Counted from the stretch's first letter, positions 2,414-46,584 are shown. The stretch: 64,000 nucleotides of DNA from Promethearchaeota archaeon (GCA_048938105.1 JBHLMN010000008.1:64001-128000), one strand, 5' to 3'. The notes: a model not told the origin generated them from the sequence alone. Numbers and translations: made by a program.

Positions 2414-2702
2414 CTATATTAGGGAATTAATACCTATCAATAATTGGAGATGGGAAATATCAACGATTAACGGTGAATTATTACAAATTAGACTTGACCT
2501 ATTTGATTTTGAATATTTTTAAATGACTGGGTTTCCACTAATCAATGGTTAAAAAACTAAACCTAAATCTATGTTTTAAATATCTTGGTGGATTATTTAA
2601 AAGATGATTAATAGATTTAAATGATTAATAAAAGAGGGAAGACAATTTATCATTAACTCCAGTAGAAACATGATACTCGTTAACTGAGCAGCAGGCTAGA
2701 GA

Positions 2703-4439: not shown

Positions 4440-4452
4440 GAGAGAAGTGTAG

Positions 4453-7408: not shown

Positions 7409-7453
7409 TTAATTCTTCCATTCTTTTAATCACTGTCGGAGAACTAGTTTGTT

Positions 7454-8173: not shown

Positions 8174-8264
8174 TCTTCATTGTTTTCTAATAATCTTAAA
8201 AAGCATATATGAAATCCTAGCCCCATCAACATTCTTTTACTAAATTATTTGTGAGATGAACTGA

Positions 8265-9704
8265 ATGAAGACTTCTCAAGAATATAGAGAGAGCTTATAC
8301 AAAATGAAGCATAATGTATTCATAAATGGGGAGAAGGTCGGACGGAAAGATCCGAGAATGGAAGGGGTAATAAAGACAATTTCCCAAACCCTAGATAGAG
8401 TTAATGAACCAGAATTTAAAGATTTACTATCTGCCAAGTCCCATATTAGTGGTGAAACTGTAAATAGATTTACCCATATTCATCAATCCGTAGATGATCT
8501 TCTCAAGAAACAAGAGATGACAAGAAGGATTTGTCGTTATACTGGAGGGTGTATATTTCGCTGCATGGGAATCGACGCAATGAATGCGCTTTCAATTATA
8601 ACTTATCGCGCAGAAAAAATGACAGGTAAACCATATCATCAACGTTGGCTAGAATACCTAAAGTTCTGGCAAGAAAATGACATTATTGCGACTTGTGCTC
8701 AGACAGATGTTAAAGGAGATCGATCCCTGAGGCCCCATCAACAAGCTGATCCTGATTTGTATGTTCATGTTGTAGAGCATCGTGATGATGGTATTGTGGT
8801 TCGTGGAGCCAAAAATCATATTACTGCAGCTGCGGTAGCTGAAGAGATCATCGTTACTCCAACAAGATTTTTGACCCCAGAGGAGGATCAATATGCGGTT
8901 TCTTTTGCTATTCCTGGCGATTGGGACAACGTTTATCTGGTTACACGAGCGTCGAATATGAGACCACGTGAGCATACATCATGTCCTTCTGCAGATGCTG
9001 GGGATGTTGAAAACTTCATCATTTTTGACGATGCATTTATTCCAAACGATAGAGTGTTTCTAGGGGGTTATGAGGGAGAACATCAGTTCGGAGGTTGGTT
9101 AGCTCTGTTATTTGCTTTATATCATAGACATAGCTACACTGGGTGCAAACCTGCGACCACTGATATTATTATGGGGTATAGTGCACTAGTCACAGAATAT
9201 AATGGCGTAGGAGACAAGAAACACGTCCAATCTAAGCTCGCAGATTTAATTAGTGTTGCTGAACTCGTTAATGCAGCGGGGATTGCCTCAGCTTATAAAG
9301 CAACAAAAGATGAATCAGGTACAATGATTCCTGATCCAGTTTTCTGTAATGTCGGTCGAAAACATGCCGGGAAAAATTATTATCACGAACTAGAAACTCT
9401 AGCTGATCTTGCTGGAGGATTACCAGCCACTCTTCCTTACGAAAAAGACTTTTTCAATGATACAACTGGTCCATTTCTGCAAAAATATATCAAACGTAAA
9501 GAGGATGTCTCTGCTGAGAATGTGTATAGACTCTACAGAACACTGTCAGATACTCTTTGCTCGGGAATTGGTGGTGTTGCGGCTGTTGCAGGTATTCACG
9601 GTGGTGGAAGTCCAGTTATGGAAGACATAGCTATTCTTAAACAATACGATATCGATGAACGGAAGAAAATCGCGAAGTACCTTTCTGGAATTTCGGATGA
9701 TTGA
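8265..9704 (+). CDS. abfD: 4-hydroxybutyryl-CoA dehydratase (HpaB/AbfD family)
   Basis: Candidate [4Fe-4S] ligands CIFRC and HRHSYTGCK; AQTDVKGDRS, DPDLYVHVVE, GIVVRGAK and HGGGSP motifs. Confidence 0.85.
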   Translation: MKTSQEYRESLYKMKHNVFINGEKVGRKDPRMEGVIKTISQTLDRVNEPEFKDLLSAKSHISGETVNRFTHIHQSVDDLLKKQEMTRRICRYTGGCIFRCMGIDAMNALSIITYRAEKMTGKPYHQRWLEYLKFWQENDIIATCAQTDVKGDRSLRPHQQADPDLYVHVVEHRDDGIVVRGAKNHITAAAVAEEIIVTPTRFLTPEEDQYAVSFAIPGDWDNVYLVTRASNMRPREHTSCPSADAGDVENFIIFDDAFIPNDRVFLGGYEGEHQFGGWLALLFALYHRHSYTGCKPATTDIIMGYSALVTEYNGVGDKKHVQSKLADLISVAELVNAAGIASAYKATKDESGTMIPDPVFCNVGRKHAGKNYYHELETLADLAGGLPATLPYEKDFFNDTTGPFLQKYIKRKEDVSAENVYRLYRTLSDTLCSGIGGVAAVAGIHGGGSPVMEDIAILKQYDIDERKKIAKYLSGISDD

Positions 9705-9752
9705 CAGTGTATCAATAATTAATCCTTAAGCAGAAACTTTCAGAACTAGTCT

Positions 9753-11405
9753 CTAGTCTACTTGGATAGTAACTAATGGCCCAAAAACTTCTTCAGCATC
9801 ATTTATTGCATCATCGAATTGGCTTAGGTCTCCGCTCCAAGTAGGAATGATAGCTTTGAATTTCTCCTCGAATTTCTGTAAGAACTTTTGTAAGAGACTA
9901 TGTAGTTCAGGGTCATTTTTATTAGCAAAAATTGCAGCAGAAAGTCCCATCTTGCCTTTATCAGAAATAATGAAGTGAGTTCCATGACGAACTAGGCTTA
10001 AGTTTGCCCCTTCTTCTCCAGTTGCTTCTAGCATGAATGACCCTACAGCTGAAAGGGCACCAGAAATCAAAGGAAGATCTACTTGAAGTTCTTTCTCTCT
10101 CCCAAAATCATAATGAAAGATAGGCATTCCAGCGTCATTAATGACCAATAAGAGAAAAAATTCTAAGGGGGGAAAAGAATCTCCAATCCAAAATAATGGT
10201 AAACCAGCAAGTATGGCTAAACCAAGTAATATAAATACATTCATAATCAAGGTAATATCTAAGATTTGTTCAGAAACAAATAAATAACTTAAGGGGAAGC
10301 CAATATAAATACCTAGACCAAGAGATTGGAAATTAAGAGATGAATATTTACCAATGGAATCTCTCGGAGCTAGGTCTACCCATAAACTTCCATCAAGAGC
10401 TGGGTGAATCAAAGCGAAAGATATACCGATGATAAGAGCAGAGAGATAAAAAGCTGCTGAATAGTCGTTAAATAATCCAACAATTAATGAAGCGAAAACA
10501 ATTCCATATAAAGCTAGAATAATTGAAGTTTTTCTCCCCCAATAATCAGTAAGGAATCCCGAGGGGAAAATAAAGAAGCAACTACCAATAAGTACAATTA
10601 ACCAGAAAGATTTGTACCAACTAATGTCTAGAAATGTACTAAAACCAAGGATAATGCCAGCCTGGGCTAATGAACCGAAGGTCAAACCAATCATCAAATA
10701 TACAAGGGTATGTGTCCAATAATAAGCCTCTACTGAAGGACGCTTGAGAATTCGTATAAGTGGAGTAACCCATGGGTCATTTATCCAGAAGGGCCAATTT
10801 CGGGTATAGTAATAGAAAACAATACTAATCACAATTCCAATAACTGAAATTACGGAAAATGAGAAGAAAAAATCCAAATTAAATAATTCAGTTCCTAAAA
10901 GCAATAAAATACAAGAAAATAGCCCTCCAAATATCGCAATCGCATATCCTCTCCCACGATGCGTCCACTTTATCGAAGATCCATAGAGAGTATGTGCTGT
11001 AATAGTCAAAACTCCCATAAAGGCCCCTAGACAAAATACTGCTATAATTAAGAGTAATCCATTTATAAATTGTAAAGCAATCATATCAATGGCAAGAAAT
11101 AGCGAACTTCCAATCAGTCCCACTACTGTTACTTTTCCTAAATCTTTAGGATATTTATCTATGACCATACCACTAAAAGATCCAGTAACTCCTGCTGGAA
11201 CTGCCCAGACAATCATAATAAAAAAATCATGAGTACCAGGTAAAATGTTATTATCCTTTATATAGTCCATCATATCAAAGGAATAAATTAAGACAAAAGC
11301 AATGAGTAATACCCATGTAAATAGGGATGGTAGCAAAGCGTTTGTGTAATGAATAAGTCTGCTATATTTATTATTTTTTTCATTATTTACTTTCAATCTC
11401 CTCAC
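9753..11405 (-). CDS. MFS transporter fused to a C-terminal longin-like domain
   Basis: About 12 TM helices with motif A (GFLTDYWGRK), then a soluble ~135 aa tail with LLLVINDAGMPIFHYDF...LISGALSAVGSFMLE...FEEKFK...WSGDLSQF. Confidence 0.8.
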   Translation of the reverse strand: MRRLKVNNEKNNKYSRLIHYTNALLPSLFTWVLLIAFVLIYSFDMMDYIKDNNILPGTHDFFIMIVWAVPAGVTGSFSGMVIDKYPKDLGKVTVVGLIGSSLFLAIDMIALQFINGLLLIIAVFCLGAFMGVLTITAHTLYGSSIKWTHRGRGYAIAIFGGLFSCILLLLGTELFNLDFFFSFSVISVIGIVISIVFYYYTRNWPFWINDPWVTPLIRILKRPSVEAYYWTHTLVYLMIGLTFGSLAQAGIILGFSTFLDISWYKSFWLIVLIGSCFFIFPSGFLTDYWGRKTSIILALYGIVFASLIVGLFNDYSAAFYLSALIIGISFALIHPALDGSLWVDLAPRDSIGKYSSLNFQSLGLGIYIGFPLSYLFVSEQILDITLIMNVFILLGLAILAGLPLFWIGDSFPPLEFFLLLVINDAGMPIFHYDFGREKELQVDLPLISGALSAVGSFMLEATGEEGANLSLVRHGTHFIISDKGKMGLSAAIFANKNDPELHSLLQKFLQKFEEKFKAIIPTWSGDLSQFDDAINDAEEVFGPLVTIQVD

Positions 11406-11447
11406 TACCCATTTTGCTGTGTCTTCTTTAGATTTTAAGTATTGGGA

Positions 11448-13262
11448 TTATTGTAAGGAAAAAATAGGTTGATCAACAGTGAGAAGTTTGGCTGCTTCTA
11501 TATTAAAGTTGGATCCATAGATTCTCTCTACTGCCTCATTGAACGGAGTATGACGTCTAGCTGCTAATAATTGATTTGTTCTCATGTGCAGGGATCTGCG
11601 TGGAAGTGGTTCCACATCTTTAGCTCTTGATTGCCAATCTGCTATTTGTTGTGAAATCCCTGCAATTTCGACAGAAGTCGTTGCTATAGTACCAACAACT
11701 CGTTCTTGATTTCCATTCAAGCTAAGAATGAGTTTTTGATTGTCTTCAGCTATCAAGAAGAGTTCTTCAATTAATATTCGATTGTCATCAAAGCAGGTTT
11801 TATATAATTTTGATATTTCCTGATCTAAACCATTAAAAAACGTAATCACTGTATTTGGTAGAGTATCCAGTCGTGTTAGGAAAAATGTGTCCGTTTTCTT
11901 AAAGTCTGTTTCAAAAGTTCCAACGACGTAATAGCTTTCCTCACGAACCGTATCAAAGAGATCGAAAAGATTCATATCTCCAACCGCGTCAACAGTTATT
12001 CCTTGGGTGATAAAAGAACTTTCAGACATAAATTGTGGTAAATGACTTTGTTTTTTCTCTTTCTTTACTTCTTTAGGGAGTTTGATTTTTCTTGGTTTAG
12101 GAATTGATCTTTCTTTGACTGGTGGTTTTGCTTTCTTACCAAATAATACTCGCTTAATTTTGCCAAAGAAGCCTTCTTTAACTGGTGGTTCTACTGTTTC
12201 TACCTCTGGAACAGCAGCAATCTCTTCAGATATAATGATTGGTTTCTCTTTGGGTTTAACAGCATGTTCTTCTATGGAAGTAAATAATGATTTCCAACCA
12301 CCATGTTCAAGACCCCGTAATTGAAGAATTGTTAAGACTTCTGAGAGATTGAGTTCATCTGCTGGTGTTTTAAGAACAAATATTGGTTTTGCGCGCGTAA
12401 AAGGATCTCGTACGATGAAAAAATGTTCCATAGTATCTAATATACTCCCTCTCATTAGTACTAATTGTTTACCATCAAGAGGTTGATTTAAGAATTTTAC
12501 AATTGAAGGTAATTCGACTTGTAGTTTGAGTGCATTTGATGGGGTTGTATTCCATAAAGAAACTAGAGAGGTTTGTTGAGCGTCAAGAAGTAAAATAGCT
12601 TTACTTTCGTTCATGTTTGGAATAATCGGATTAGGATTTGTTTCTACAACTTGTTTTTCACTATAACTTATCATCAAGCGCCAAATTGGTTCAGTTAATG
12701 CTTTATACTCTGTATATTGAGGTAAATTACCGAATTTCTGAATTTCGTCATCTGGGTACATTCTCTTCATGGCAGCTGATAAAATACCTAGTTCCCACCC
12801 ACAAGGGCCTTTCCCTAGAAGTTCTGACACTACAGCTAAATAAGGGGTGATATAGCTATCTTTTAACCTGATTAATGTAGCTTTCCGTGATAATCCCCGA
12901 CCAGCCATAAACAAGTCCTGTCGTCTTATGGTGGTAGCTGTTTTATATGCTAGATAGAAAATTCTCATCAAGGAGTCAGATGAAGAACAACGAGAACGAC
13001 CTTGAAGAAATGAGTGTATAACTGACCGATATCGTTCCTCATCTGATCCACCAGAAGGAAGTTCGGAAGCGGTGACGATGAAATCAGCAACAAAAAGAGC
13101 ACGAACCGCATCATCAATTTCAGTTAATCCTTGATTGGAAGCGAGCTCAACCAACTCTGATTGATTTTTATAACGATTCAACCGATTTTCAAGATCATAT
13201 TCATCTTCTATCTTGTGAACCAAGGATCTACAAACGTCTTCATTTGGTATCTTTAACATCAT
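11448..13262 (-). CDS. Hypothetical protein (604 aa; Lys/Pro-rich linker; alpha/beta C-terminal domain)
   Basis: Long ORF with normal composition; no family recognised. Confidence 0.75.
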   Translation of the reverse strand: MMLKIPNEDVCRSLVHKIEDEYDLENRLNRYKNQSELVELASNQGLTEIDDAVRALFVADFIVTASELPSGGSDEERYRSVIHSFLQGRSRCSSSDSLMRIFYLAYKTATTIRRQDLFMAGRGLSRKATLIRLKDSYITPYLAVVSELLGKGPCGWELGILSAAMKRMYPDDEIQKFGNLPQYTEYKALTEPIWRLMISYSEKQVVETNPNPIIPNMNESKAILLLDAQQTSLVSLWNTTPSNALKLQVELPSIVKFLNQPLDGKQLVLMRGSILDTMEHFFIVRDPFTRAKPIFVLKTPADELNLSEVLTILQLRGLEHGGWKSLFTSIEEHAVKPKEKPIIISEEIAAVPEVETVEPPVKEGFFGKIKRVLFGKKAKPPVKERSIPKPRKIKLPKEVKKEKKQSHLPQFMSESSFITQGITVDAVGDMNLFDLFDTVREESYYVVGTFETDFKKTDTFFLTRLDTLPNTVITFFNGLDQEISKLYKTCFDDNRILIEELFLIAEDNQKLILSLNGNQERVVGTIATTSVEIAGISQQIADWQSRAKDVEPLPRRSLHMRTNQLLAARRHTPFNEAVERIYGSNFNIEAAKLLTVDQPIFSLQ

Positions 13263-33310: not shown

Positions 33311-35647
33311 TCATTGATGTTCTTGAATTGCTTTTAAAACTCTATCAGGGGTATAAGGAGGTTCAGTTAAACGAATACCAATAGCATCATAAATTGCATT
33401 TGAAAGACATGGCATTGGTCCACTGATATTCGGTTCAGCAATTGATTTCGCACCAAATGGTCCTGTTGGCTCGTAAGTTTTAACAATAATGGTTTTTATT
33501 TCTGGTAGATCAATTGTTGTCATTACTTTATAATTCCCAAATGAGGGGTTCAACATCCTTCCCTGGGCGTTAAAATAATAACGTTCACTTAATGCATATC
33601 CTAATCCGTTTACTAATGCGCCTTCAGTTTGGCCAATGACCAATTTAGGGTTTATGGGAGTACCACAGTCTACTGCTGCTACATATCTCAGGACTCTTAC
33701 TCTTCCAGTCTCGATGTTTACCTCTACCTCTGCAAAATGAGCACAAAATGGGGGAGGCGATTTTCGTGCCAGTTCTGATGCAACCGCACCAATCTGTTGT
33801 TGATTTTCTGTGTAGAGAGCTTTTGTGCCTATCTCAGTAAAACTCAAAGATTTTTTAGTCTTGGGATGAAATACAGCCTTATTCTTGAGTTCGAGTTCAT
33901 TGATAGGTAAATTCAATAGGACTGCAGCATACTCAAGAACTTGTTTCTTTATTTTTTCAGCTAAATTCTTAACTGCCATCCCAGAGAGGTAGGTTGTAGA
34001 TGATGCATAAGCTCCCTTATCAAATGGAGTAATGTCTGTATCTGAAGAAAGGACAACAATATCAGATTCGATGTCAAGGTTTAAGACTTCTGCGAAAATC
34101 TGAGCTAAAACAGTATCACTCCCAGTTCCGATATCTGTTGCCCCAACCATAAGGTTGAAAGAGCCGTCATCATTCATTTTTGCATAAGCGCTTGCCATGT
34201 CTATATATGGTATTGCAGAGCCTTGCATGAGACATACTAACCCAAATCCTCTCTTTCTCGTTTCAGTATTGTATTTTTTCTTGTGTTCCTCCCGATTCCA
34301 CCATCCAATTGCATCAGCTCCAAGTTTAATACATTCTGAAAGCCCAACCGACTCTAGTGTTTGTTCATGTCCTTCGCCCCCTTCGCCAAGTGCTCTGAAG
34401 ATGGGGGAGGTCTCACCAGGTTTGATATGATTTAATAATCTAAATTCTGCTGGATCCATTCCGATTTTTCTTGCCAGTTCATCCATCACAATTTCCATTG
34501 CCAGTGCAGCTTGCGTACCACCATATCCCCTGTATGCACCTGCTATAGGAAGATTTGTGTAAACAGTGTCACCAACAATACGGATATTGTCACAGTGGTA
34601 CAATGGTAAGGTTTTACTTCCTGTATTACTTAATACTGTTAATCCATGAGTTCCATATGCCCCAGTATTGCTAAGCACTTTCATATCAATAGCAGTAATT
34701 GTTCCATCTTCCTTGACACCAGCTTTGAATCTCGTAGTCATTGGGTGACGAGTTCGTGCGGAAATAAACTCCTCCTTTCTTGTGTACTCCAATTTTACAG
34801 GTCTTTTTAGTTGAAGTGTAAAAGAAGCAGCAATTATCTCTGTAACAATTTCTTGTTTTACACCAAAACCCCCACCGATCCGTGGCTTTATTACTCTGAC
34901 TCTAGCTATTGGAAGATTCAAAACCTGTGCTAGTATTCTTCTTGCATGGTACGGAACCTGAGTAGCAGATCGTACAACTAATCGGTCATGTTCATCTAAA
35001 TAAGTAATTGAAATATGAGGTTCTAAAGGACAATGTTGACCATAATGATTCCGAACTGTACAATCTACAATATAATCAGCTTCAGCGAATCCTTGGTTAA
35101 TATCCCCTACTTCTGCATCTATATGAGCTACGTGATTGTTGGCTGGATCATAAAAAACAGGTATAAGGTATTTTGCATCTCTTTCATCATGGATCACTAT
35201 TTGGTTGCCTAAGGCTTGATCCCAATCGAATAGAGGTTCTAATATTTTATATTTTACCCGAATGAGTTTTATTGCTTCTTCAGCGATCTCTATTGATTCT
35301 GCTGCAACCGCTGCTACTCGATCTCCTACATACTTCACTTTCTTATTGAATAAACGAGTATCATATGGACTTGGTTCGGGGTAACCCTGACCTGCTGTTG
35401 TGTGAAGGACTTGAGAACAATTTTTGTGGGTGAGGATTCCTAATACTCCTGGGTGTTTTTCTGCTTCACTTGTGTCAATATCAGTGATTATGGCATGAGC
35501 ATGGGGACTACTTAGAAGTTTTACATGAACTAGGTCCTTGAAATCAATGTCATCCGTGAATAATGGTTTACCCATAGCCAAACTTAAAGCATCAACTTTA
35601 GGAACACTTTTACCAACTACTCTGCCTTCAAAAACCTTTGATTTTAT
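33311..35647 (-). CDS. Molybdopterin-binding large subunit (cluster 2, XdhD-like); start extended from 35581 to a probable ATA at 35647
   Basis: GGGFGVKQE, AYRGYG, GAYASSTT, GAKSIAE. The in-frame upstream VVGKSVPKVDALSL matches the N-terminus of the cluster 1 subunit. Confidence 0.9.
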   Translation of the reverse strand: MKSKVFEGRVVGKSVPKVDALSLAMGKPLFTDDIDFKDLVHVKLLSSPHAHAIITDIDTSEAEKHPGVLGILTHKNCSQVLHTTAGQGYPEPSPYDTRLFNKKVKYVGDRVAAVAAESIEIAEEAIKLIRVKYKILEPLFDWDQALGNQIVIHDERDAKYLIPVFYDPANNHVAHIDAEVGDINQGFAEADYIVDCTVRNHYGQHCPLEPHISITYLDEHDRLVVRSATQVPYHARRILAQVLNLPIARVRVIKPRIGGGFGVKQEIVTEIIAASFTLQLKRPVKLEYTRKEEFISARTRHPMTTRFKAGVKEDGTITAIDMKVLSNTGAYGTHGLTVLSNTGSKTLPLYHCDNIRIVGDTVYTNLPIAGAYRGYGGTQAALAMEIVMDELARKIGMDPAEFRLLNHIKPGETSPIFRALGEGGEGHEQTLESVGLSECIKLGADAIGWWNREEHKKKYNTETRKRGFGLVCLMQGSAIPYIDMASAYAKMNDDGSFNLMVGATDIGTGSDTVLAQIFAEVLNLDIESDIVVLSSDTDITPFDKGAYASSTTYLSGMAVKNLAEKIKKQVLEYAAVLLNLPINELELKNKAVFHPKTKKSLSFTEIGTKALYTENQQQIGAVASELARKSPPPFCAHFAEVEVNIETGRVRVLRYVAAVDCGTPINPKLVIGQTEGALVNGLGYALSERYYFNAQGRMLNPSFGNYKVMTTIDLPEIKTIIVKTYEPTGPFGAKSIAEPNISGPMPCLSNAIYDAIGIRLTEPPYTPDRVLKAIQEHQ

Positions 35648-36114
35648 TGTTTTTCACCTCTCATCATTGCCGCAGCGTTAAGAACTGCTTTAAGCTGGCC
35701 AGAATAGCCAGTACATCGACAAAGATTTCCATCTAAAGCACGTTTTACATCATCTTTGGTCGGTGAAGGATTTCTATCCAAAAGTGCTTTAGCACTAATA
35801 ATTATCCCAGGGATACAAAATCCGCATTGCACTGCTCCTTCATCAACAAAAGCCTGTTGAAGAGGATGGGGATTTTCACGAGTACCAATTCCTTCAATCG
35901 TAGTTATTGAACCTTCATGAGCTTGAGCAGCGAACATTATACATGATTTAACTGCCCTTCCGTTCAGAATAATCGTACAAGACCCACATTCTCCTTCCAT
36001 GCATCCTCTTTTCACCCCTTTATACCCCTCCTTTCTTAAAACATCGATTAGGAGTTCATTGGGTTCAATTGTTAATATTTTTCTCTTCCCATTAATTATT
36101 ACATTAATTTCCAT
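35644..36114 (-). CDS. 2x[2Fe-2S] small subunit (cluster 2)
   Basis: GCMEGECGSCT, QCGFCIPG, NLCRCTGY. Confidence 0.95.
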   Translation of the reverse strand: MEINVIINGKRKILTIEPNELLIDVLRKEGYKGVKRGCMEGECGSCTIILNGRAVKSCIMFAAQAHEGSITTIEGIGTRENPHPLQQAFVDEGAVQCGFCIPGIIISAKALLDRNPSPTKDDVKRALDGNLCRCTGYSGQLKAVLNAAAMMRGEKQ

Positions 36115-36123
36115 TTTCTTTTC

Positions 36124-36942
36124 TCAACCTCCTTTCAGCTCATTCAACATTCGCCGAAATAACAATCCTAAAAGATGTTCTCGATAGGATTTTGAAGACC
36201 TATAATCAGCCACTATATTTATTGATTGCCTTAATGTTGTTACGGCTGTATCTATATCTAAATTAGATAATGATTTTCCCTTAAGAAATTCTTCCACCTG
36301 AATCACCCGTTGAGCTTTCGTTATACGAGATACTGCAAGACGAGGATCAACTATTATTCCATTCTCTTTTTTTGCTGCAAAAGCCATTGTAAGCCATGAA
36401 TAATCTACTGTAGTTAATGAAAACTTCTCATAACGACAAAAATAATTGTCTCTGAAAGGGAAAACAACTTCTGTTATGATCTCTCCTTTATGCAATTTGT
36501 CACCTTTGAAATAATCCTTCGCGGAAACCTTTCTAATTCCTCCCAGATTTCTTATTACTATTTCTGAGTCGAGAACGAGTAAAACGACTGGTAAACCCAC
36601 CCAAGGATAAGTTCCTGCAATATTGCCCCCAAGAGTGATAACATTACGGAGAGGAGTGTCACCAATGAGTTGACACGCTTCTGTTAATATTCCATTACCG
36701 ATTTTCCTTATGATAGGTGATTCGATTATTTCCGTGATCGTTGTTGTACTTCCTACCCGTGCAAATTTTTGGTCTTTCTTGATATAATTCAATCCTAATC
36801 GTGTAATATCAACAAAATTCGATATGGTTCGATTTTTTGATGTAGCTAGATGAGTTCCACCAGCAATAATTGCTGTAGATTCTTTTGTAAGTAAATTAAG
36901 TGCTTCTTCAAGGCTAGTAGGGTAAGAAAATTCTTGGGTCAT
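36124..36942 (-). CDS. FAD-binding medium subunit (cluster 2)
   Basis: IAGGTH, LRNVITLGGN, DYRSSKSYR. Confidence 0.9.
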   Translation of the reverse strand: MTQEFSYPTSLEEALNLLTKESTAIIAGGTHLATSKNRTISNFVDITRLGLNYIKKDQKFARVGSTTTITEIIESPIIRKIGNGILTEACQLIGDTPLRNVITLGGNIAGTYPWVGLPVVLLVLDSEIVIRNLGGIRKVSAKDYFKGDKLHKGEIITEVVFPFRDNYFCRYEKFSLTTVDYSWLTMAFAAKKENGIIVDPRLAVSRITKAQRVIQVEEFLKGKSLSNLDIDTAVTTLRQSINIVADYRSSKSYREHLLGLLFRRMLNELKGG

Positions 36943-37380: not shown

Positions 37381-37986
37381 TTAATAATCATCCATTTTAG
37401 CTTTAAAATAAGTCATATCAGAAACATTATCAATATCGTATAGTATTCCTTGAAAGTTTGTTGGAAGGAATACAATTTTCTCTCTAAACTTTTCGATGAT
37501 TTCCTTCAAACCTCTTTTTTCTTCTGAAATATTTAAGACATGCTTAAAGAGCTGAGATCCAATTAAAATAGGATGACCCTTTTGTCTTTGGTAAGTAGGG
37601 ATGATCACAACAGGTGACATGGAGAGATAGTAATCGATCAGTTGGTCAAAGACCGTTGAGGGGATAAAGGGGATGTCTGCTGGTGTAATCATAATTGCCT
37701 GACTATCCAGCGCTTCTTCCATCCCTTGACGGATAGAGGAAGACATACCTCCCCTCTCATAATTAGGATTAAGGACGGTAATTATGTCATTGCATAAACC
37801 TTGGACTTTTTTATTGACTAATTCCGCATCATGTCCGAGAACCACTACTATTCGATCGACTTTAGAGGCTAGTATTGAACTCAGAAGCATTTCTATCATA
37901 GTGATATTTGGTTTGACCTCAAACAATAATTTGTTTCCATTAAATCGCTTCGACTCACCAGCAGCTAGTACAATACAGGTAATCAT
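37381..37986 (-). CDS. mocA: Molybdenum cofactor cytidylyltransferase (MocA/NTP_transf_3)
   Basis: VLAAGESKRF..NKLL, NPNYERGGMSSSIRQG, PADIP, GHPIL, DID; adjacent to a Mo-hydroxylase operon. Confidence 0.85.
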   Translation of the reverse strand: MITCIVLAAGESKRFNGNKLLFEVKPNITMIEMLLSSILASKVDRIVVVLGHDAELVNKKVQGLCNDIITVLNPNYERGGMSSSIRQGMEEALDSQAIMITPADIPFIPSTVFDQLIDYYLSMSPVVIIPTYQRQKGHPILIGSQLFKHVLNISEEKRGLKEIIEKFREKIVFLPTNFQGILYDIDNVSDMTYFKAKMDDY

Positions 37987-38079: not shown

Positions 38080-38784
38080 ATGATAGAAATTGGATATTTA
38101 CTAATTTTTTGGATAGTTGCATGCATCTTCATCATTTTTAAGAGCATTAAAATCGAAGAGATTCGAGTTGAAAGCGAAATAATTCATAAATTGATTAATT
38201 TTAGCAGCCCTTTCATCAAAGGAGTGCCTGCGATTCTTGCAGCTCTATTTGTTTTAATTATGAGGTCAAGTGACTCTCTTTTCTTTTTTGTCTTAATTGG
38301 GGCATTTCTCTTCTGTTTTGCAGGAGATTTAGGAATGGAAAAGGGGATTTTAGTAGGACTTCCCCTCTTCTTAATCGCTCAGCTCCTTTTTAGTATTGCT
38401 TTTCTTGGCCAAGCGTTTTCAATTGGTATATCATTCGAAACTTTAATACCAACAGCTGTTGTAATCGGTGTTGTAGTCGGATATATGTTCATGTTTCTTC
38501 GTTATCTTGATTCATCTGAGACTGGACTTGGAGAGTTTAAAATTCCTGTCATCATGTATTGCCTAGTCATTAGTACAATGCTTATCTCTTCATTCCTCCT
38601 CTGGATTACTTTAGGAATCTTGGAAGTCATTGTGATGATTTTAGGAGCAATAATCTTCGTTATTTCTGATTCAATTATTGGTATTCACGAGTTTCATCAT
38701 AAAATTTCAAGAAACGTTTTGAAGGTTATGGGGACTTATTATATGGCCATTTTCCTCCTCTCATTAGGTGTTCTATTAATATAA
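38080..38784 (+). CDS. YhhN/TMEM86-family lysoplasmalogenase-like membrane protein
   Basis: IKGVP, FCFAGD, FLIAQ, PVIMY, GAIIFVISDSII, VMGTYY. Confidence 0.82.
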   Translation: MIEIGYLLIFWIVACIFIIFKSIKIEEIRVESEIIHKLINFSSPFIKGVPAILAALFVLIMRSSDSLFFFVLIGAFLFCFAGDLGMEKGILVGLPLFLIAQLLFSIAFLGQAFSIGISFETLIPTAVVIGVVVGYMFMFLRYLDSSETGLGEFKIPVIMYCLVISTMLISSFLLWITLGILEVIVMILGAIIFVISDSIIGIHEFHHKISRNVLKVMGTYYMAIFLLSLGVLLI

Positions 38785-38804: not shown

Positions 38805-39971
38805 TCATTCACCTTTCGATCCAAAAGCAATTGTGAGGACCTCAGTGATGTTCTCCCATTCTTGATCTATTTTTTCCCATGTACGGTAGTCTTGGAACAA
38901 TCTTTTTCGAAAAGGAAGGATCATTTGAGCCATTAAAGAAAGCTTTTCTTGAGTAGGATGCTCTAGGATTTTTCTTTCAACGTTCTTAAGTGATTCTTTC
39001 TCCCAATTTGGATATATTTCTCCAAGCTGTTCACCTAAGAATAAACCTAGCTCTAATCCCGTTAGAATTCCAGAGCCTCCCGAAGGAGTAACCTGTCCTG
39101 CAGCTTCCCCAATAATAAAACAATTGTTTGAATAGACTTTAGACACTGGCCCTCCCATAGGTATTGTTGTCTGGATTGTTTCATAGAATCTCGAAGTTTG
39201 GATTTTTTCTTTGATTATAGGACTGTGTAATACTTCTTCCCAAATTTCCCAATAACTTGGTAGTGGATCTGTGGAGACTTCTGGAAAAATAATAAACCCA
39301 AATTCAGCATTTTGGTGTCCATGAGGAAAAATAAAACTTGTACCTGCTACATTCAAATTAGTATCTGAGAAAAAGAGAAATTCCATATCATTCTCATTAT
39401 AATCACCGAAAAAATGCCCTCTAATAATTGGACAAAGAGGACCTGGTTGAGGTAATTGCTGACCTTGTGCTGTTAAGCTGTTCGCTCCTTCTGCTCCAAC
39501 CACTACTCGTGAAGTTAAAATTTTAGATGTGTTTTTTACCACATTTTTAGTAAATACTTGTAATCGCTCATCAGGTAATAGAACAAGATTGGTTGCTCTG
39601 GTGTTTACTCGAAGAAATACATCTTCCATTACAGATTGTTTGGCAAGCTCGGTTTGAAAAAGACGGAAGTCAATCCACACTCTGTCAATATTGTCTTCAA
39701 GATGGAATGCTTTTTTCCCCGAAGGAGAGTAATAATTTCTACCAAACGACTTAATCTCATTAACAAAAGCCTTAGTAGGGAGGTCTTTCGGGAAAATCTT
39801 TGTTAATAATTTCGGACGATAGTGAATGGATTGCCCTTTTATTTGATTCCCGATCGCTGGCTGTTGATCTAAAACTAATACTTTTTCCACACCCCTTCGT
39901 TTAGCTCCTAATGCTGTTGCTAGACCAGCAGGTCCAGCTCCAATTATGATTAAATCAAATTCATTTTTCAT
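38805..39971 (-). CDS. Geranylgeranyl reductase-family flavoprotein (divergent)
   Basis: IIIGAGPAG, VVGAEGANS, FIFP, IGEAAGQVTPSGGSGI. Confidence 0.8.
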   Translation of the reverse strand: MKNEFDLIIIGAGPAGLATALGAKRRGVEKVLVLDQQPAIGNQIKGQSIHYRPKLLTKIFPKDLPTKAFVNEIKSFGRNYYSPSGKKAFHLEDNIDRVWIDFRLFQTELAKQSVMEDVFLRVNTRATNLVLLPDERLQVFTKNVVKNTSKILTSRVVVGAEGANSLTAQGQQLPQPGPLCPIIRGHFFGDYNENDMEFLFFSDTNLNVAGTSFIFPHGHQNAEFGFIIFPEVSTDPLPSYWEIWEEVLHSPIIKEKIQTSRFYETIQTTIPMGGPVSKVYSNNCFIIGEAAGQVTPSGGSGILTGLELGLFLGEQLGEIYPNWEKESLKNVERKILEHPTQEKLSLMAQMILPFRKRLFQDYRTWEKIDQEWENITEVLTIAFGSKGE

Positions 39972-40147: not shown

Positions 40148-43100
40148 TTGAAGTACAAAACATTATTTAAACAAGTAATAAATATTAACCTCGTTATAGA
40201 ATCTTTCGCTGCAGGAATGATATTTATGGTAACTACTGACATAGAAATGAAACCCGCCGCTCTTAGTGGTCATTCAATCAAGTTAGATGAACTTGTTTCA
40301 AAATTAGATTCCAATCTTGAAAATGGGATTTCTCAAGAGTACGCTACAAAAAGACTTGAGGAAGTCGGTTTTAATGTTATTCCCAAACCTAAGCAGAGTT
40401 TTTGGCAAGTATACTTAGCTCCGTTGTTAAACACATTAATTGTTATCTATTTGATAATGACTGCTTTTATTCTTCTCTTGGCGCTCATTTATCTATTCAT
40501 TAATCCTGATGATACAAGTATATGGATCACTGCAGCCCAATGGATAGTGATTGTCGGTGTGAACTTCCTTATTGCTATTATTCAACAAGCAAGAGCTCAG
40601 AAAAAGATCGAAGCTCTTCATAAAATGGCTGCACCAGAAGCTCGTGTAATCAGGGATGGAAAAGAACACGAGATCCCAACTGAGGAAGTTGTACCAGGAG
40701 ACATTATCAAAATCGCCCAGGGTGATAAAATACCTGCAGATTCTCGTATCATAAAGTCAAGTTCTCTCCGTGTAAATGAATCGTCTTTAACTGGGGAAAG
40801 TGTTCCTGTAACAAAAGTGGAGTCGGGAGAACCTGTGTTTGCTGAAGATACACCTATTGGTGATCGAAAAAATATGCTATTTAACGGAACATTTGCAACA
40901 ATGGGTTCAGGCTTAGCATTAGTTGTTAATACGGGGGGAAATACAGAATTTGGAAAAATAAGTCTTGAATTAGAGCAATTAAACACAGGAGACATTCCAA
41001 TCCGTCAGAAAGTGAATGTCATTGGGAATTATTTAGCATTTGGTATGTTGGTTGTTTTTAGTATGCTAATTATTTATCAGGGAGCTGTGATTCTTGACAA
41101 ATTGAAATATGGAGAACTCAGCTTTGCCGAACCAGTTCTATTGATTGGTGAGATTATTTTCTCCCTTAGCAACATTATCATCAAAGCCATGAGCGTTGTC
41201 CCCATCAATATCCCTCTATTAACTACAATTATTTTGATTACTGGCGTTCTAGCTATGGCTAAACATCGGGTAATCATTCGAAATCTGGCTTCAATAGAAA
41301 GTTTAGGGAGAATTAGTGTTCTCTGTTCTGATAAGACAGGAACAATCACCGCTGGTCAGATGACTGTGAAACGGATTTGGGATGCTACCACAGGTAAGCA
41401 CTATTATGTCACTGGTTTAGGGTATTCTCCAGAAGGTAAGATAGTTGAATTAAAAGAAGATGATGATAAAATAGTTGAAAAAGATGCTAAAACTTATACT
41501 GAGTATACTGTTGAACTAGACTCGTCTTTAGGTATGTTGATAACATCTGGTATGTTAAATAACGATTCCGAAATCATAAAAGAATTTATTGAAGCAACAG
41601 GCCAATATGTGTATGATGGAACTGGAAGTCCAACCGAATCGGCCCTCTTAGCATTATTTAATAAAACAGGGATGGAAAAAAATAAGATAGAAGAAGAATT
41701 TGAGCTTTTAAGAGAGTATCCTTTTGACTCATCTTTAAAACGGATGAGTAAAGTCTTTAAAACCAAGAACGAGATCTTTGTGTTTTGTAAGGGAGCTACT
41801 GAAGTCCTTTTACCAAAATGCTCTTACATTGGATTTGGAAAGAATCGAGAAAAAATAACAAAAGAGCATAAGGATAAAATTATGGATTATATGGAAAAAT
41901 TTGCTGGCCAAGGTTATAGAATATTATCTTTTGCATATAGAAACATAGATAAACTTCCAATGAAGGGAGATGAGGAACGAGATGAAGTAGAAATCGATCT
42001 TTCATACCTCGGTTTTGTTACAGTACTAGATCCTCCTCGTGAACGTGTTGATGAATCAGTAAATGAAACATTGCAAGCTGGAATCATTCCAATTATGATC
42101 ACAGGCGATTCACCTCTGACTGCCTCCTCTATTGCTAATAATATTGGTATGGTATACTTGGAAGAACACCAAACACATGAGGGGAAAATGGCATCCCAAC
42201 TAGCGGATAGAGATTTCACAAACACACGGGTTTTTGCACGTGTGGCACCTCAAGACAAACAGATCATTGTTGCACGGTATCAACAGCAGCAGCGAGTTGT
42301 TGCTATGACAGGTGATGGAGTCAACGATGCACTCGCCCTTAGTATGGCAGATGCGGGGATAGCTATGGGAATTGCTGGTACAGAAGTAAGTAAGCAAGCA
42401 GCAGATCTTGTTATTGCTGATGACTCTTTTAACTCCATTGTAACAGGAATTAGAGAGGGACGTGCTCTCTTTCAAAGGATTCGTGTTATTATCTTTTTCT
42501 ACATATGTGCTAATTTAGCTGAAGCTGGTTGCTATATCGGTGCCTCCTTCATTTCAGGATTCATTCCAGGTTTTGAATTAATGGATCATCTCCAACGAGC
42601 CTATATTTTTGGTATTGCACACTCTTTTCCTCCTCTAGCATTGATCATTGATGGTATTCCCAAGGATATCATGGATAGAAAACCAATTGATACTGCTGGA
42701 ATATTTAACAAGAGATTAGCTTTAACATTATTATTAACTTCGATCAGTCTGGCTACCGTTATTTATATCGTTTACTTCATTACTTATTTTGCTTTCATCC
42801 CCGTGAATGAAGTTTTTGTTGAGGGATTTTACAGACCTATTTTCCAGACTGAGGTTGAAACCTACCCTGATGTCCCGAATTTAAGACCACAAAATTGGAA
42901 TCATGCTAAAGCACGGACATACATGCATACAATACTTTATATCGCTATTCCTCTAATTATTCTCTCAATTCGTAGAATTGACAAATCTCTCATACGAGCA
43001 ATCAAAGAAGACTCTTATTGGTATACATATGTTCTGGCGTTCTCAATCTTACCTTTACATCTAATCTTAATGTACATCAAGGAAATCCAGGAATTAATTG

Positions 43101-43237
43101 CTAGATTTGGAGTTTATGTTGACATTATTGCCCTTGATATCAGTGACTGGCTTTTATGTATCATTGCGGCACTCATTCCACTTTTAGTACTGGAAACAAC
43201 AAAATGGATTAATAGATTGAGAGGACAATATTACTAA
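40148..43237 (+). CDS. P-type ATPase with a P2-like scaffold and a non-canonical membrane site; start probably at 40217 or 40226
   Basis: PGD, PAD, LTGES, DKTGT, KGA, DPPR, MITGD, MTGDGVND; TM4 reads VVPINIP. Confidence 0.95.
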   Translation: MKYKTLFKQVININLVIESFAAGMIFMVTTDIEMKPAALSGHSIKLDELVSKLDSNLENGISQEYATKRLEEVGFNVIPKPKQSFWQVYLAPLLNTLIVIYLIMTAFILLLALIYLFINPDDTSIWITAAQWIVIVGVNFLIAIIQQARAQKKIEALHKMAAPEARVIRDGKEHEIPTEEVVPGDIIKIAQGDKIPADSRIIKSSSLRVNESSLTGESVPVTKVESGEPVFAEDTPIGDRKNMLFNGTFATMGSGLALVVNTGGNTEFGKISLELEQLNTGDIPIRQKVNVIGNYLAFGMLVVFSMLIIYQGAVILDKLKYGELSFAEPVLLIGEIIFSLSNIIIKAMSVVPINIPLLTTIILITGVLAMAKHRVIIRNLASIESLGRISVLCSDKTGTITAGQMTVKRIWDATTGKHYYVTGLGYSPEGKIVELKEDDDKIVEKDAKTYTEYTVELDSSLGMLITSGMLNNDSEIIKEFIEATGQYVYDGTGSPTESALLALFNKTGMEKNKIEEEFELLREYPFDSSLKRMSKVFKTKNEIFVFCKGATEVLLPKCSYIGFGKNREKITKEHKDKIMDYMEKFAGQGYRILSFAYRNIDKLPMKGDEERDEVEIDLSYLGFVTVLDPPRERVDESVNETLQAGIIPIMITGDSPLTASSIANNIGMVYLEEHQTHEGKMASQLADRDFTNTRVFARVAPQDKQIIVARYQQQQRVVAMTGDGVNDALALSMADAGIAMGIAGTEVSKQAADLVIADDSFNSIVTGIREGRALFQRIRVIIFFYICANLAEAGCYIGASFISGFIPGFELMDHLQRAYIFGIAHSFPPLALIIDGIPKDIMDRKPIDTAGIFNKRLALTLLLTSISLATVIYIVYFITYFAFIPVNEVFVEGFYRPIFQTEVETYPDVPNLRPQNWNHAKARTYMHTILYIAIPLIILSIRRIDKSLIRAIKEDSYWYTYVLAFSILPLHLILMYIKEIQELIARFGVYVDIIALDISDWLLCIIAALIPLLVLETTKWINRLRGQYY

Positions 43238-43321: not shown

Positions 43322-44698
43322 TTATAGCTCAATTTCAGCCTTAGAATTCTCTTTTCGCCAAAATCTTCTATAGTACCACCCTCCAGTTCGCTTTCCAATA
43401 GAAACTTCATTGATGTCGGAAATCCAATTTTTTTCTATTTCACGTGCTTCTTCAAAAGCTTTCTTCGATAATTGGAATAAAATATCTTTACGCTGGTCGA
43501 ATGGTTGGGAGGTAAGTTGAGATTTTGTTTCAGTAACTATTGCAATCCACTTCTGCTCATACTGTTCGATATCAGGATGAATTATTCGAATTCTTGTTTG
43601 GTAATCTTCAAGAATTAAACGATGGATTCGTTCATGCTGCCACCACATACTTTTTGGATCATACTTATTTTTTGGCCTTGGACCAATATCAGGAAGTCCT
43701 GCGTCGAGGAAAACAGGTTTAAAGAGGGAAGTACAAGGAGCTGCTGTTCCAGTAACCCAATGTGTTTGAAGATCTGAGTGGAGATGTGATACTAAAGATC
43801 CTGTTGTTTGACTTATCACAAAAATTGGCCTGCAATGAATACAAATGTTATCGAATGAGCTTTTTGAAGGATTCCAGTTATTAATCTTTTTAGGCTCTTT
43901 GATATTATGGTCTCGGAGTATAGCCATCATGAACGCTGTATCTATGCTCCCTTTTTTTTCAAGAAGCTTTTGAGTTGTGAATTTATGTCTCTTAAGTCCC
44001 TTTCCTCCCCAAGTTCTTATATCAGTTATTCTAGCGGTAAATGCCCTAGCAAAATGGAAATTTTTTCGTTTACTATAACCCTTTTTTACGGCATAAGTGA
44101 TGGCATCAGGATGAATACGATCGTATTTCTTTCCGATAGTGAGTGCGTTCGAAATAGTCCTAATATCCTCAACTTTCTCAACACACCAGAACCTATCTGC
44201 AGTCTCCAAGACCCATGCTTCATTGGGATCAGCAATAAGCCATGAATTATGATAACCTCCCTCAGAATAACCTGGACATGTATGATTCCCTCCTTGACCA
44301 TATTTTTCCAATAAATGTATGATTACATCTACAGCTTGGGTAGCAGTTTCAACTCTCTCTAGAGCCAAACGAATGAAATCCATCCCGAGTAATCCTTTAT
44401 CTTGTTCTGGTTCTTTAGTAAACACTGCTTCATTTCCGATGGTTACCCCATATTCATTTGCACCCATTTCACATCCATATATCCAGTAAGGGGAGGAGAG
44501 GAGTATAGCAAAGGTCTCTTCAACTTGAGGGATCTCCAAATTTGTTGTTTTCACAACTTCTTGGTCAGGATCATGTGTTTGACGAGGATAAAATTGAAGA
44601 TAATGGCTTTCATTCACTACTCTATCGGAATTTTTAGCCAGAAGTACACTTCCATCGGCAGTACTGTTTTTTAATGCTACTAATGTATCGCACAACAT
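43322..44698 (-). CDS. Peptidase C69 / secernin-like Ntn hydrolase
   Basis: N-terminal CDTLVA, AKNSDR, GCEMGANEYGVTIGNEAV, LLGMDFIRLALER. Confidence 0.9.
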   Translation of the reverse strand: MLCDTLVALKNSTADGSVLLAKNSDRVVNESHYLQFYPRQTHDPDQEVVKTTNLEIPQVEETFAILLSSPYWIYGCEMGANEYGVTIGNEAVFTKEPEQDKGLLGMDFIRLALERVETATQAVDVIIHLLEKYGQGGNHTCPGYSEGGYHNSWLIADPNEAWVLETADRFWCVEKVEDIRTISNALTIGKKYDRIHPDAITYAVKKGYSKRKNFHFARAFTARITDIRTWGGKGLKRHKFTTQKLLEKKGSIDTAFMMAILRDHNIKEPKKINNWNPSKSSFDNICIHCRPIFVISQTTGSLVSHLHSDLQTHWVTGTAAPCTSLFKPVFLDAGLPDIGPRPKNKYDPKSMWWQHERIHRLILEDYQTRIRIIHPDIEQYEQKWIAIVTETKSQLTSQPFDQRKDILFQLSKKAFEEAREIEKNWISDINEVSIGKRTGGWYYRRFWRKENSKAEIEL

Positions 44699-45148: not shown

Positions 45149-45862
45149 TTGTGTTTCTACAGGAGAAATGTCATGAAAAAACTGAAATGTGTTTTCATTG
45201 ATATGGTTGATGATCGAAGGAGGAGAACATTAGGAGAAGAGGAGAATCTACCCCCGTATTCTACTTTCCAGGAGTATCCATTTAATAGCCACATTAGTAG
45301 TCGAGTAAAAGAGATTTTTGGTTGGACCACGGATTTAATGAAGGATACTTCTTTCGGTGAATATGAGATTAGCATTCATGTCATTACATTAGATTATCTC
45401 CAACGACATGGCATCACTCAACACTTCTATTCGCCTCATGGGCCTAAATATGATGATAAATATTCTTACCTACATGGTATGAATTTACTTACTTTAGAGG
45501 GTTATAATAGAAGCCATTTGATATACTCGATCAAGAGAATCCGTCACATCTTTCAAAAAAAACTAATTACGGCCAAAACAAAAAAGTCCCGTTCCATTAA
45601 GGTGAATGATTTAAGAAATTCATACGTTGTACCAGTTGATCGTCCCAGAGTCGGGATTTTAACACCACGCATAAACTTACATACATCATGGGTTCAAGAC
45701 TTAAATAATCTCTCAGAATTTAATATTATCTCCAGTGATATTCGTGATTTAGTACCAGATATATCTCCTGATAATTTTGTTGATTATTCTTTATCCCGAA
45801 GTTATAAGTATAATTTGGATGATTATAATCAAATATTTGATCAAATCCTTGAAACCATATAA
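45149..45862 (+). CDS. Hypothetical protein (orphan); start probably the ATG at 45173
   Basis: 237-aa ORF, AGGAG upstream of the internal ATG; no recognisable family. Confidence 0.55.
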   Translation: MCFYRRNVMKKLKCVFIDMVDDRRRRTLGEEENLPPYSTFQEYPFNSHISSRVKEIFGWTTDLMKDTSFGEYEISIHVITLDYLQRHGITQHFYSPHGPKYDDKYSYLHGMNLLTLEGYNRSHLIYSIKRIRHIFQKKLITAKTKKSRSIKVNDLRNSYVVPVDRPRVGILTPRINLHTSWVQDLNNLSEFNIISSDIRDLVPDISPDNFVDYSLSRSYKYNLDDYNQIFDQILETI

Positions 45863-45897: not shown

Positions 45898-46584
45898 TTA
45901 CTTTTCGGGTTTAACACAAAGGATCTTAGATAAGTGGCTAGGAATCTTATATTCGGTGTTATTTATTTCTACGGAAACTCCTTCTGTATCCCTATCTTTA
46001 ACAACTATTTTTGTATCAATCTCATGAATCTGATATGATTCCAGTTCTTTAATGGTTTCTGTTGAATGACTGCTAATTCTAGTCAAGATAACTATGTTTC
46101 CAGTCGGGATATCGACCAAGTTTTGATCATCACAACCTAGATCCTCAACGTCTCCCATTGGAATTATGTCTCCAAATGGAGTTTTTTTATCTTTCAGTTT
46201 TTTAAAGATTATTTCAGCAAGACGATCCGATATCCCATGTTCTAAGTAACACGCCTGTTCATGAAGCTCACTAAATGGTACATCAAATATTTGATAAAGC
46301 ATTGCTTCGGCCAGTCTATGATTTCTTGCAATTCGTCGTGCAACTTGATATCCTAGTTTAGTCAAGAGGATCCCATCATACGGTGTATAATCAACATAGC
46401 CCCGAGGTTCTAATTTCCGCCGTACGATGTTTGTTAATTGGGTTTTAGCAATATCTTGGTCTAATTTATCTAAAATCTCTCCCATCTTTATCCGTTGTTT
46501 CATCTCTTTGTTAATAGTAATATCAAAAAGAACTTCCATTATCTCTTCTTCAATGTTCCTAAGATCAAATTTTTTTTCATGCAT
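45898..46584 (-). CDS. DtxR/MntR-family metal-dependent repressor with a C-terminal FeoA-like domain
   Basis: GYVDYTPYDGILLTKLG, RNHRLAE, HEQACYLEHGIS, TPFGDIIP. Confidence 0.9.
   Translation of the reverse strand: MHEKKFDLRNIEEEIMEVLFDITINKEMKQRIKMGEILDKLDQDIAKTQLTNIVRRKLEPRGYVDYTPYDGILLTKLGYQVARRIARNHRLAEAMLYQIFDVPFSELHEQACYLEHGISDRLAEIIFKKLKDKKTPFGDIIPMGDVEDLGCDDQNLVDIPTGNIVILTRISSHSTETIKELESYQIHEIDTKIVVKDRDTEGVSVEINNTEYKIPSHLSKILCVKPEK

Follow-up and report, generated by a model that had tools for sequence, protein, structure and literature searches.

The gene described here lies on the plus strand (40148-43237) of a 64-kb stretch of DNA from a Promethearchaeota archaeon (JBHLMN010000008.1), hereafter the window, and it encodes a P-type ATPase with a remodelled transport site. 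P-type ATPases are classified and understood through the ligand signatures of transmembrane helices (TM) 4, 5, 6, and 8. The protein belongs to a near-universal, monophyletic family of the Asgard archaea that breaks the type II (P2) signature in a fixed manner: a hydrophobic residue stands in place of the gating glutamate of TM4, and a histidine in place of the universally conserved aspartate of TM6. This family is a large, Asgard-centred, and experimentally uncharacterised type II branch, and it would represent a substrate class of its own on a scaffold that is understood in detail. Judged from its sequence, the pump is probably a Post-Albers (E1/E2) ATPase that employs the SERCA-type scaffold of ten helices and transports, at a single site, some small cation that is not Ca2+. 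The additions made here to the family-level picture are its placement with respect to the P3A and P3B pumps, the loss of the TM8 glutamate in one subclade, the pairing with a YhhN gene together with its limits, and the copies found outside the Asgard archaea.

Catalytic machinery and transport site

The gene forms a single uninterrupted frame of 1029 codons with TTG as its first codon, and residues are numbered from this TTG throughout. The translation start is likely the ATG at 40226, which would give a protein of ~1003 amino acids, because the N-termini of the homologues align to Met 27 of the longest frame and residues 1-31 of an AlphaFold2 model are of low confidence (predicted local distance difference test, pLDDT, below 50). 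A Pfam scan returned the full P2/P3-type set of domains, including those at the N- and C-termini. The P-type superfamily model, TIGR01494, matches with 261 bits versus a cut-off of 62, and all of the superfamily motifs are there (Table 1). The TM4 proline and the aspartate that is phosphorylated are separated by 43 residues. By sequence, the machinery for ATP hydrolysis and phosphorylation is intact.

Residue equivalences in the membrane region were taken from a family profile of TM5 to TM10 aligned end to end with SERCA2 (108 bits). A short TM8 segment searched by itself against the PDB gave no match, and the family profile was used instead. Alignments with LMCA1 from Listeria and with the Na,K-ATPase concur on the equivalences in TM4 and TM6. 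When the Ca2+ ligands of the SERCA/PMR1-type pumps are traced in this manner, only Asn 789 and Glu 792 of TM5 are found to be retained, the rest being substituted by Ile 353, Phe 821, Ala 824, His 825, and Ile 934. Ca2+ site II of SERCA is thus erased (E309 to Ile and N796 to Phe), and site I is rebuilt around Glu 792 and the near-invariant His 825, with Asn 789 and a new TM4 asparagine, Asn 354, beside them. The pocket of this protein thereby retains a single carboxylate and a single imidazole, and its set consists of a Glu, a His, and two Asn.

An initial annotation of the DNA had described an intact, P2-like catalytic core, a PINIP motif in TM4, the conversion of the N/T/D ligands of TM6 to F/A/H, and the TM5 N..E pair as the only SERCA ligands kept. 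All of these observations stand. Indeed, TGES, DKTGT, DPPR, and GDGVND are each present as listed, the coordinates given for PINIP were exact, the profile alignment with SERCA2 identifies the TM6 residues as Phe 821, Ala 824, and His 825, and Asn 789 and Glu 792 correspond to N768 and E771. The annotation was likewise correct that a canonical cation site is missing; by sequence, the site cannot be the canonical one for two Ca2+ ions.

An Asgard-centred family within the type II pumps

Relatives were gathered from 5.8 billion proteins and from 1.84 billion cluster representatives, the latter searched exhaustively. The full-length sequences form a graded series from 91% down to ~30% identity. 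In an alignment of 249 P-type ATPases, a hydrophobic residue (Ile, Val, Leu, Phe, or Trp) at the E309 position and a His at the D800 position occur together in 144 of the 145 family members, and the His is present in none of the PEGLP-type proteins. The two substitutions covary perfectly, and chance would not account for this degree of conservation. The TM4 segment of the family follows the pattern P-hydrophobic-(N/S/T)-hydrophobic-P. In a set of 61 sequences reaching down to 30% identity, Glu 792 is invariant, and His 825, Asn 789, Tyr 89, and Pro 92 are at least 90% conserved. The last two belong to a family motif in TM1, Y89-x-x-P92-x-x-N, that occupies the place of QF in canonical pumps; its Asn 95 is replaced by Asp or Glu in some subclades. 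The pocket of the wider family contains a Glu from TM5, a Glu from TM8, a His from TM6, and two Asn, and residue 351 is a Met in 81%. Sequencing error or private mutation as the source of the motifs is ruled out, given that they are kept in 145 homologues, and the close relatives do not revert to PEGLP. The annotation had also proposed an undescribed P-type subfamily, and this description is apt: the family is conserved and distinct, and no paper describing PINIP-type pumps was found in the literature searched, with subscription journals lying outside that search.

In a tree rooted on the P1B pumps of the same genome, the 145 family sequences form one clade with a support of 0.95. In a second tree, to which eight P3A pumps of Asgard archaea (with PVALP in TM4) and eight P3B pumps (with PELLP or PDLLP) were added, the family once more forms a single clade (1.0) and joins the PEGLP-containing P2A-like pumps (0.92), with the P3A and P3B pumps outside and the P1B pumps also apart. 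The NCBIfam models tell the same story. For the pump they score 422 (IIA2), 417 (IID), 399 (IIA1), 360 (IIB), 340 (IIC), 313 (IIIA), 296 (IIIB), 246 (V), and 112 bits (IV), and the ranking is unchanged for nine distant family members, with the SERCA/PMR1-type models reaching 396-521 bits. Across the pump and these nine proteins, the type II models span 340-520 bits, IIIA/IIIB ~270-370, V ~200-255, and P4 85-147. Every type-specific score is nevertheless below its curated cut-off (399 versus 703 bits for the SERCA-type model TIGR01116, 422 versus 798 for the PMR1-type TIGR01522, 313 versus 615 for the P3A model TIGR01647, and 340 versus 946 for TIGR01106), and therefore the pump and its family fall into none of the named subfamilies.

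The AlphaFold2 model, built with 61 family sequences, is a confident one, with a pLDDT of 87.8 and a predicted template modelling score (pTM) of 0.81. As in SERCA, its TM4 helix is broken (residues 349-353) and its TM6 is unwound (residues 825-829). When the PDB was searched with Foldseek, every one of the 50 best matches was a SERCA, SPCA1, LMCA1, or Na,K- or H,K-ATPase structure, with TM-scores normalised by query of 0.55-0.72, and neither P4 nor P5 pumps were represented. The family is a type II pump in the broad sense, and it sits inside the P2A-like radiation as a separate, long-branched clade.

The pump belongs to a subclade of 37 sequences, defined by an identity of at least ~65% to it, whose source names are mostly Hodarchaeales or Hodarchaeota. 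In these 37 closest sequences, position 934 is Ile or Leu followed by Pro, and in 99% of the family outside the subclade it is Glu. The absence of a TM8 glutamate noted in the initial annotation is accordingly correct for this protein, and it is a trait of the subclade. Other changes in the subclade are Val for the Met that precedes the TM4 proline, Thr for a TM2 Gln, and Leu for a TM6 Trp. The genome contains a second family member, truncated by the contig end (C21:701-2878, minus strand), with PINIP, the TM6 His, and the TM8 Glu all kept; since this second copy retains the Glu, the Ile-type pump is suggested to be a derived paralogue.

With the TM5 to TM10 region as query, family members align over its full length with E < ~1e-16, whereas canonical pumps align over part of it with E of ~1e-6 to 1e-8. 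Matches occur in 324 of 399 Asgard genomes and in 79 of the 89 high-quality ones, the weakest of these matches being canonical pumps. Two to four copies per Asgard genome are common, often in tandem, and a few Asgard families are without the pump. At one locus, two adjacent pumps (locus positions 3646-6603 and 7001-9973) are followed by an Na_Ca_ex-family gene. Many genomes of one Asgard family carry 2-4 copies. Across the Asgard families, the P3A or P3B pumps show no clean pattern complementary to that of the family. The distribution across Asgard genomes is consistent with a housekeeping ion pump, and the deepest branches of the family contain, among named members, only those labelled Promethearchaeota. 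The cultured Lokiarchaeum ossiferum also has a member.

A scan of 185,579 species genomes with a degenerate DNA pattern for PINIPLLTTI gave at least 117 loci. Titles were listed for 80 of the matches, one of which is L. ossiferum, and with four exceptions the records are Asgard metagenome-assembled genomes (MAGs) or less precisely named archaeal MAGs. The four are one closed Dehalogenimonas MAG, two Nitrososphaeria MAGs, and one 'Aerophobetes' contig. In Dehalogenimonas sp. XYDCF (CP139473.1, Chloroflexota), a full-length member (1815-4778, minus strand) adjoins an archaeal-type presenilin/SPP-like gene; the copy is 68% identical to a metagenomic family member, and the locus, whose neighbourhood is uninformative, is possibly an archaeal fragment gained by transfer. 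Together, the Dehalogenimonas and Nitrososphaeria copies suggest occasional transfer. The remaining record, NJBP01000013.1 (named Candidatus Aerophobetes bacterium), is probably mis-binned, as its pump is 96% identical to an Asgard MAG copy.

Candidate substrates and gene neighbourhood

In the mechanism envisaged, the Glu-His-Asn pocket would be loaded with one small cation from the cytoplasmic side. Phosphorylation of Asp 395 would then drive a rearrangement of TM4 and TM6 at their two unwound segments, with release of the ion to the outside, and Glu 217 of the TGES motif would catalyse dephosphorylation. Ile 353 may serve as a hydrophobic plug where SERCA has its gating Glu, and the His, when protonated, may provide a built-in counter-charge of the kind furnished by Arg655 of AHA2 or Lys791 of the gastric H,K-ATPase. 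With respect to the ion itself, H+, Na+, or K+ is put forward tentatively, and a transition metal is rated as rather doubtful. For the subclade the best guess is a proton or a monovalent cation, in that one carboxylate lies beside a titratable His and the P3A pumps share the hydrophobic TM4 residue.

Several points weigh against the overall reading. Histidine seldom serves as a ligand of Na+ or K+. With a P3A-type H+-ATPase already encoded in the genome, the need for a second proton pump is not obvious. (The P3A gene is split between two contig ends, C41:268293-269591 and C50:10-1119, both on the plus strand, in contigs that probably abut in the genome; it matches AHA2 with E=3e-97 and has a TM4 of PAALP.) No consistent ion-related partner is found in the gene neighbourhoods examined. 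The geometry of the pocket is derived from the SERCA alignment. The trees covered P1B, P2A-like, P3A, and P3B pumps, and for the eukaryotic P2B-D, P4, and P5 pumps the hidden Markov model scores and the fold matches stand in. Finally, the Glu/Glu/His/Asn/Asn(/Met) site of the wider family suits Mn2+, Fe2+, Zn2+, Ni2+, or Co2+ at least as well as a proton.

This last point leads to a different view of the family, namely a P2-scaffold pump for one of these divalent transition metals, with the subclade carrying a reduced ligand set. Its ligands would be family-wide: Glu 792, the Glu at 934 (99% outside the subclade), His 825, Asn 789, Asn 354, and perhaps, in 81%, Met 351. Such a set is typical of borderline-metal chemistry, as in the ZIP, CDF, and Nramp sites. 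Neither the TM8 Glu nor the TM4 Met, however, is left in this protein, which is also without metal-binding N-terminal domains or His/Cys-rich stretches. The gene neighbourhoods cut both ways. A DtxR-family metal-dependent repressor is encoded downstream of the pump and also in related genomes, Ni-superoxide dismutase genes lie between pump and repressor in one relative, and a ZnuABC-type uptake system is positioned 2.5 kb upstream in another. Yet the repressor, which holds its position in several genomes of the genus, is parted from the pump by variable, unrelated genes, a case of genus-level synteny rather than an operon. The other five of the nine wider loci contain no metal genes, and the neighbours that recur across 117 diverse loci are housekeeping genes unrelated to the pump, most often for a subtilase, PanB, and an MFS transporter. 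No riboswitch or other RNA family was found near the one bacterial and two Nitrososphaeria copies tested. On balance, a dedicated transition-metal pump is considered unlikely.

The initial annotation had considered a lipid or an organic ion as a possible substrate, taking the isoleucine at the position of the PEGL glutamate as a hallmark of the P4 flippases and suggesting that the pump could be an intermediate towards, or a convergence on, them. The marks of the P4 pumps are DGET, PISL, and a lysine in M5, K873 of ATP8A2, but Ile or Val occupies the glutamate position in P3 pumps as well, AHA2 among them (PMC4937031). Read directly, TM4 is PIAMP in AHA2 and PVGLP in Neurospora Pma1. The residue is thus no hallmark of the P4 pumps and does not discriminate between them and the P3 pumps, and because it is shared with the P3A proton pumps, it is not evidence for lipid transport. 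The annotation had itself recorded that DGET and the TM5 Lys are absent, and it was right in this regard: the A-domain motif is TGES, and M5 has the P2-type sequence C-A-N-L-A-E, the core of its helix containing no Lys. Compared with PISL, the TM4 sequence PINI keeps the Ile and changes the Ser to Asn and the Leu to Ile.

The proposed relation to the P4 pumps fares no better elsewhere. The P4 model TIGR01652 scores 112 bits on the pump versus a cut-off of 431 and covers only the cytoplasmic domains, and no locus in the genome exceeds that cut-off. Pfam gave no match to the P4-specific terminal domains, with Cation_ATPase_N and Cation_ATPase_C found instead. The CDC50 model PF03381 had no match in the 99%-complete genome, although the control genomes gave no match to it either and a CDC50 subunit is dispensable for some P4 pumps. 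The trees, with P1B, P2A-like, P3A, and P3B pumps included, place the family inside the P2A-like pumps, and in the fold comparison 50 of 50 matches are P2 pumps. Membership in, or a special relation to, the P4 flippases is not supported.

A lipid substrate could also have been reached by convergence, the subclade being a lipid or lysolipid translocase that arrived at a P4-like hydrophobic gate and that might flip, for example, a lyso-ether lipid cleaved by YhhN. Beyond the Ile after the TM4 proline, the pocket of the subclade is further hydrophobised (TM8 Glu to Ile and TM4 Met to Val). The sole support for lipid transport as such comes from the gene for a YhhN-family membrane protein (lysoplasmalogenase-like), which in this subclade only lies directly upstream on the same strand. 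This arrangement is shared by at least eight genomes from the genus, and in three more, this one included, the YhhN gene is within ~5 kb of the pump. The pair recurs at seven further loci with gaps of 96-136 bp, all VPINIP with a TM8 Ile where readable, and at 66% identity the pair is still kept amid different flanking genes. No YhhN gene is upstream of the pump in one 65% relative of the same subclade (P0036) or at any Glu-type locus examined. The synteny counts are not independent because the genomes are kin, and in the window an oppositely oriented gene intervenes between the two, so that they are not co-transcribed. The pairing is regarded as a lead and not as evidence of function. Furthermore, the pump has TGES in place of DGET, no M5 Lys, P2-type terminal domains, a P4-model score far under the cut-off, and a position inside the P2A-like pumps, and the invariant, buried Glu-His pair resembles a site for an ion or a proton. 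A lipid substrate is therefore improbable. If true, the subclade would be the first prokaryotic P-type ATPase to move a lipid or lysolipid, having arisen from a cation pump by a P4-like conversion of the gate in the archaea named as closest to eukaryotes. A less radical version would make the whole family a novel class among the type II pumps, its Glu-His site serving a substrate that no P2 pump is known to carry.

Also improbable is a Ca2+ (or Mg2+) pump, as database names have it, with one ion at a modified site I. Known single-site Ca2+ pumps, namely LMCA1, PMCA, and SPCA, keep site II. Given that this site is erased here in the alignment with LMCA1, and that the genome encodes separate, canonical Ca2+-type pumps with PEGLP and NLxTDGLP motifs, by which Ca2+ export is already covered, Ca2+ is an unlikely substrate. 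The equivalents of N768 and E771 are retained, but four of the six classical SERCA ligands (E309, N796, T799, and D800) are replaced, and E908 as well. One relative is followed by an Na_Ca_ex-family gene, and homologues are labelled 'Ca2+-transporting ATPase' or 'cation-translocating P-type ATPase', but such names are automatic. In a transporter survey, the only paper mentioning family proteins that was found in the literature searched, the Asgard proteins were classed as orthologues of the putative Ca2+-ATPase TC 3.A.3.2.21 and used as evidence for Ca2+ signalling in the Asgard archaea (PMC7997004). For this family, that conclusion is probably wrong.

Near this gene the only recurring neighbours are YhhN, which is specific to the subclade, and the DtxR-like gene, which is not adjacent. 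The FAD-dependent oxidoreductase that separates YhhN from the pump (Table 1) is found at the locus of one relative (P0007), is absent from that of the 66% relative (P0032), and is probably outside the pump system. Farther upstream, all on the minus strand, are a three-gene operon for a molybdoenzyme of the xanthine-dehydrogenase/CO-dehydrogenase type (molybdenum cofactor-binding large subunit, 2Fe-2S, and FAD subunits; 33311-36942) and, after it, a MobA-like nucleotidyltransferase (37381-37986). The gene next to the pump on its downstream side runs in the opposite direction and encodes a C69/Ntn-hydrolase-like protein (43322-44698), and a 237-residue protein without a Pfam match (45149-45862, plus strand) and a hexapeptide transferase are also encoded downstream. 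At the P0032 locus, a Ni-superoxide dismutase and an S26 maturation peptidase (11025-12968) are located between the pump and the DtxR-family repressor. In nine wider loci and in a clustering of the neighbours of 117 loci, lineage-specific synteny was all that emerged (S8 subtilase, PanB, MFS, SCP2, and beta-lactamase-fold proteins), with no conserved partner and none resembling a beta-subunit, chaperone, or regulator.

Table 1. Coordinates of the pump gene, its motifs, and neighbouring genes in the window
Feature	Coordinates	Strand	Remarks
P-type ATPase gene	40226..43237	+	Pfam Cation_ATPase_N, E1-E2_ATPase, Cation_ATPase, Hydrolase, Cation_ATPase_C
TGES, residues 215-218	40790..40801	+	A-domain dephosphorylation motif, P2/P3 form; G216 and E217 invariant in the 61-sequence alignment
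TM4 unwound segment, P352-I353-N354-I355-P356	41201..41215	+	I353 at the gating/ligand E309 position; N354 at the G310 position
DKTGT, residues 395-399	41330..41344	+	Phosphorylation motif (D395); D395, K396, G398, T399 invariant and T397 nearly so (61-sequence alignment)
DPPR, residues 628-631	42029..42040	+	P-domain hinge motif
GDGVND, residues 722-727	42311..42328	+	P-domain Mg2+/phosphate motif
TM5 N789-L-A-E792	42512..42523	+	SERCA N768/E771, site I ligands; E792 invariant in the family
TM6 Y819-P828	42602..42631	+	F821 = N796, A824 = T799, H825 = D800
TM8 A933-I934-P935-L-I	42944..42958	+	I934 at the SERCA E908 position
YhhN-family membrane protein (lysoplasmalogenase-like)	38080..38784	+	Pfam PF07947, 91.8 bits
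FAD-dependent oxidoreductase, geranylgeranyl-reductase-like Rossmann N-terminus	38805..39971	-	Between YhhN and the pump
DtxR-family metal-dependent repressor	45898-46584	-	2.7 kb downstream of the pump

The identity of the substrate would inform the membrane energetics and ion homeostasis of the Asgard archaea, and how far the SERCA scaffold can be retuned. The member in L. ossiferum makes the question experimentally accessible.

Comparison with known pumps

The P4 pumps (ATP8A2, Drs2, and Dnf1) resemble this protein in the Ile at the position of the PEGL glutamate (PISL versus PINI) and in a transport region poor in acidic residues. They differ in having DGET rather than TGES, in the lysine equivalent to K873, which the pump lacks, and in terminal domains for which the pump gives no match.

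With the P3A pumps (AHA2 and Pma1) the protein shares a hydrophobic residue after the TM4 proline (PIAMP and PVGLP, and PVALP in the Asgard P3A pumps), a site with few charged residues, and TGES. The P3A pumps keep the TM6 Asp, their proton acceptor, and use an Arg of TM5, whereas the present protein has a His in TM6 and a Glu in TM5, and the P3A and P3B pumps group elsewhere in the tree.

The P2C pumps (the alpha subunits of the Na,K- and H,K-ATPases) provide the best match over TM5 to TM10 when a single protein is the query (E ~1e-13), and they share the xNxxE sequence of TM5. When the family profile is employed, SERCA2 scores higher than P2C, 108 versus 70 bits. The P2C pumps differ in their PEGLL motif, in the presence of two Asp in TM6, and in the need for a beta subunit. 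Lys791 of the gastric H,K-ATPase is a precedent for a positive charge built into the transport site.

Likeness to the P2A pumps (SERCA1/2, SPCA1/PMR1, and LMCA1) extends over the A, P, and N domains, the ten transmembrane helices, and the L7/8 loop, and it includes TGES, DKTGT, DPPR, GDGVND, the 43-residue spacing from the TM4 proline to the phosphorylated aspartate, and the N..E pair of TM5. The best sequence matches are to LMCA1 (E=6e-113), SPCA1 (1e-100), and SERCA (1e-96), and the best fold matches have TM-scores of ~0.7. The differences lie in the transport site, where the pump has PINIP rather than PEGLP in TM4, F..AH rather than N..TD in TM6, and, in its subclade, an Ile in TM8 (Glu in the other family members), and also in the TM1 motif, in scores far under the curated cut-offs, and in the separate clade.

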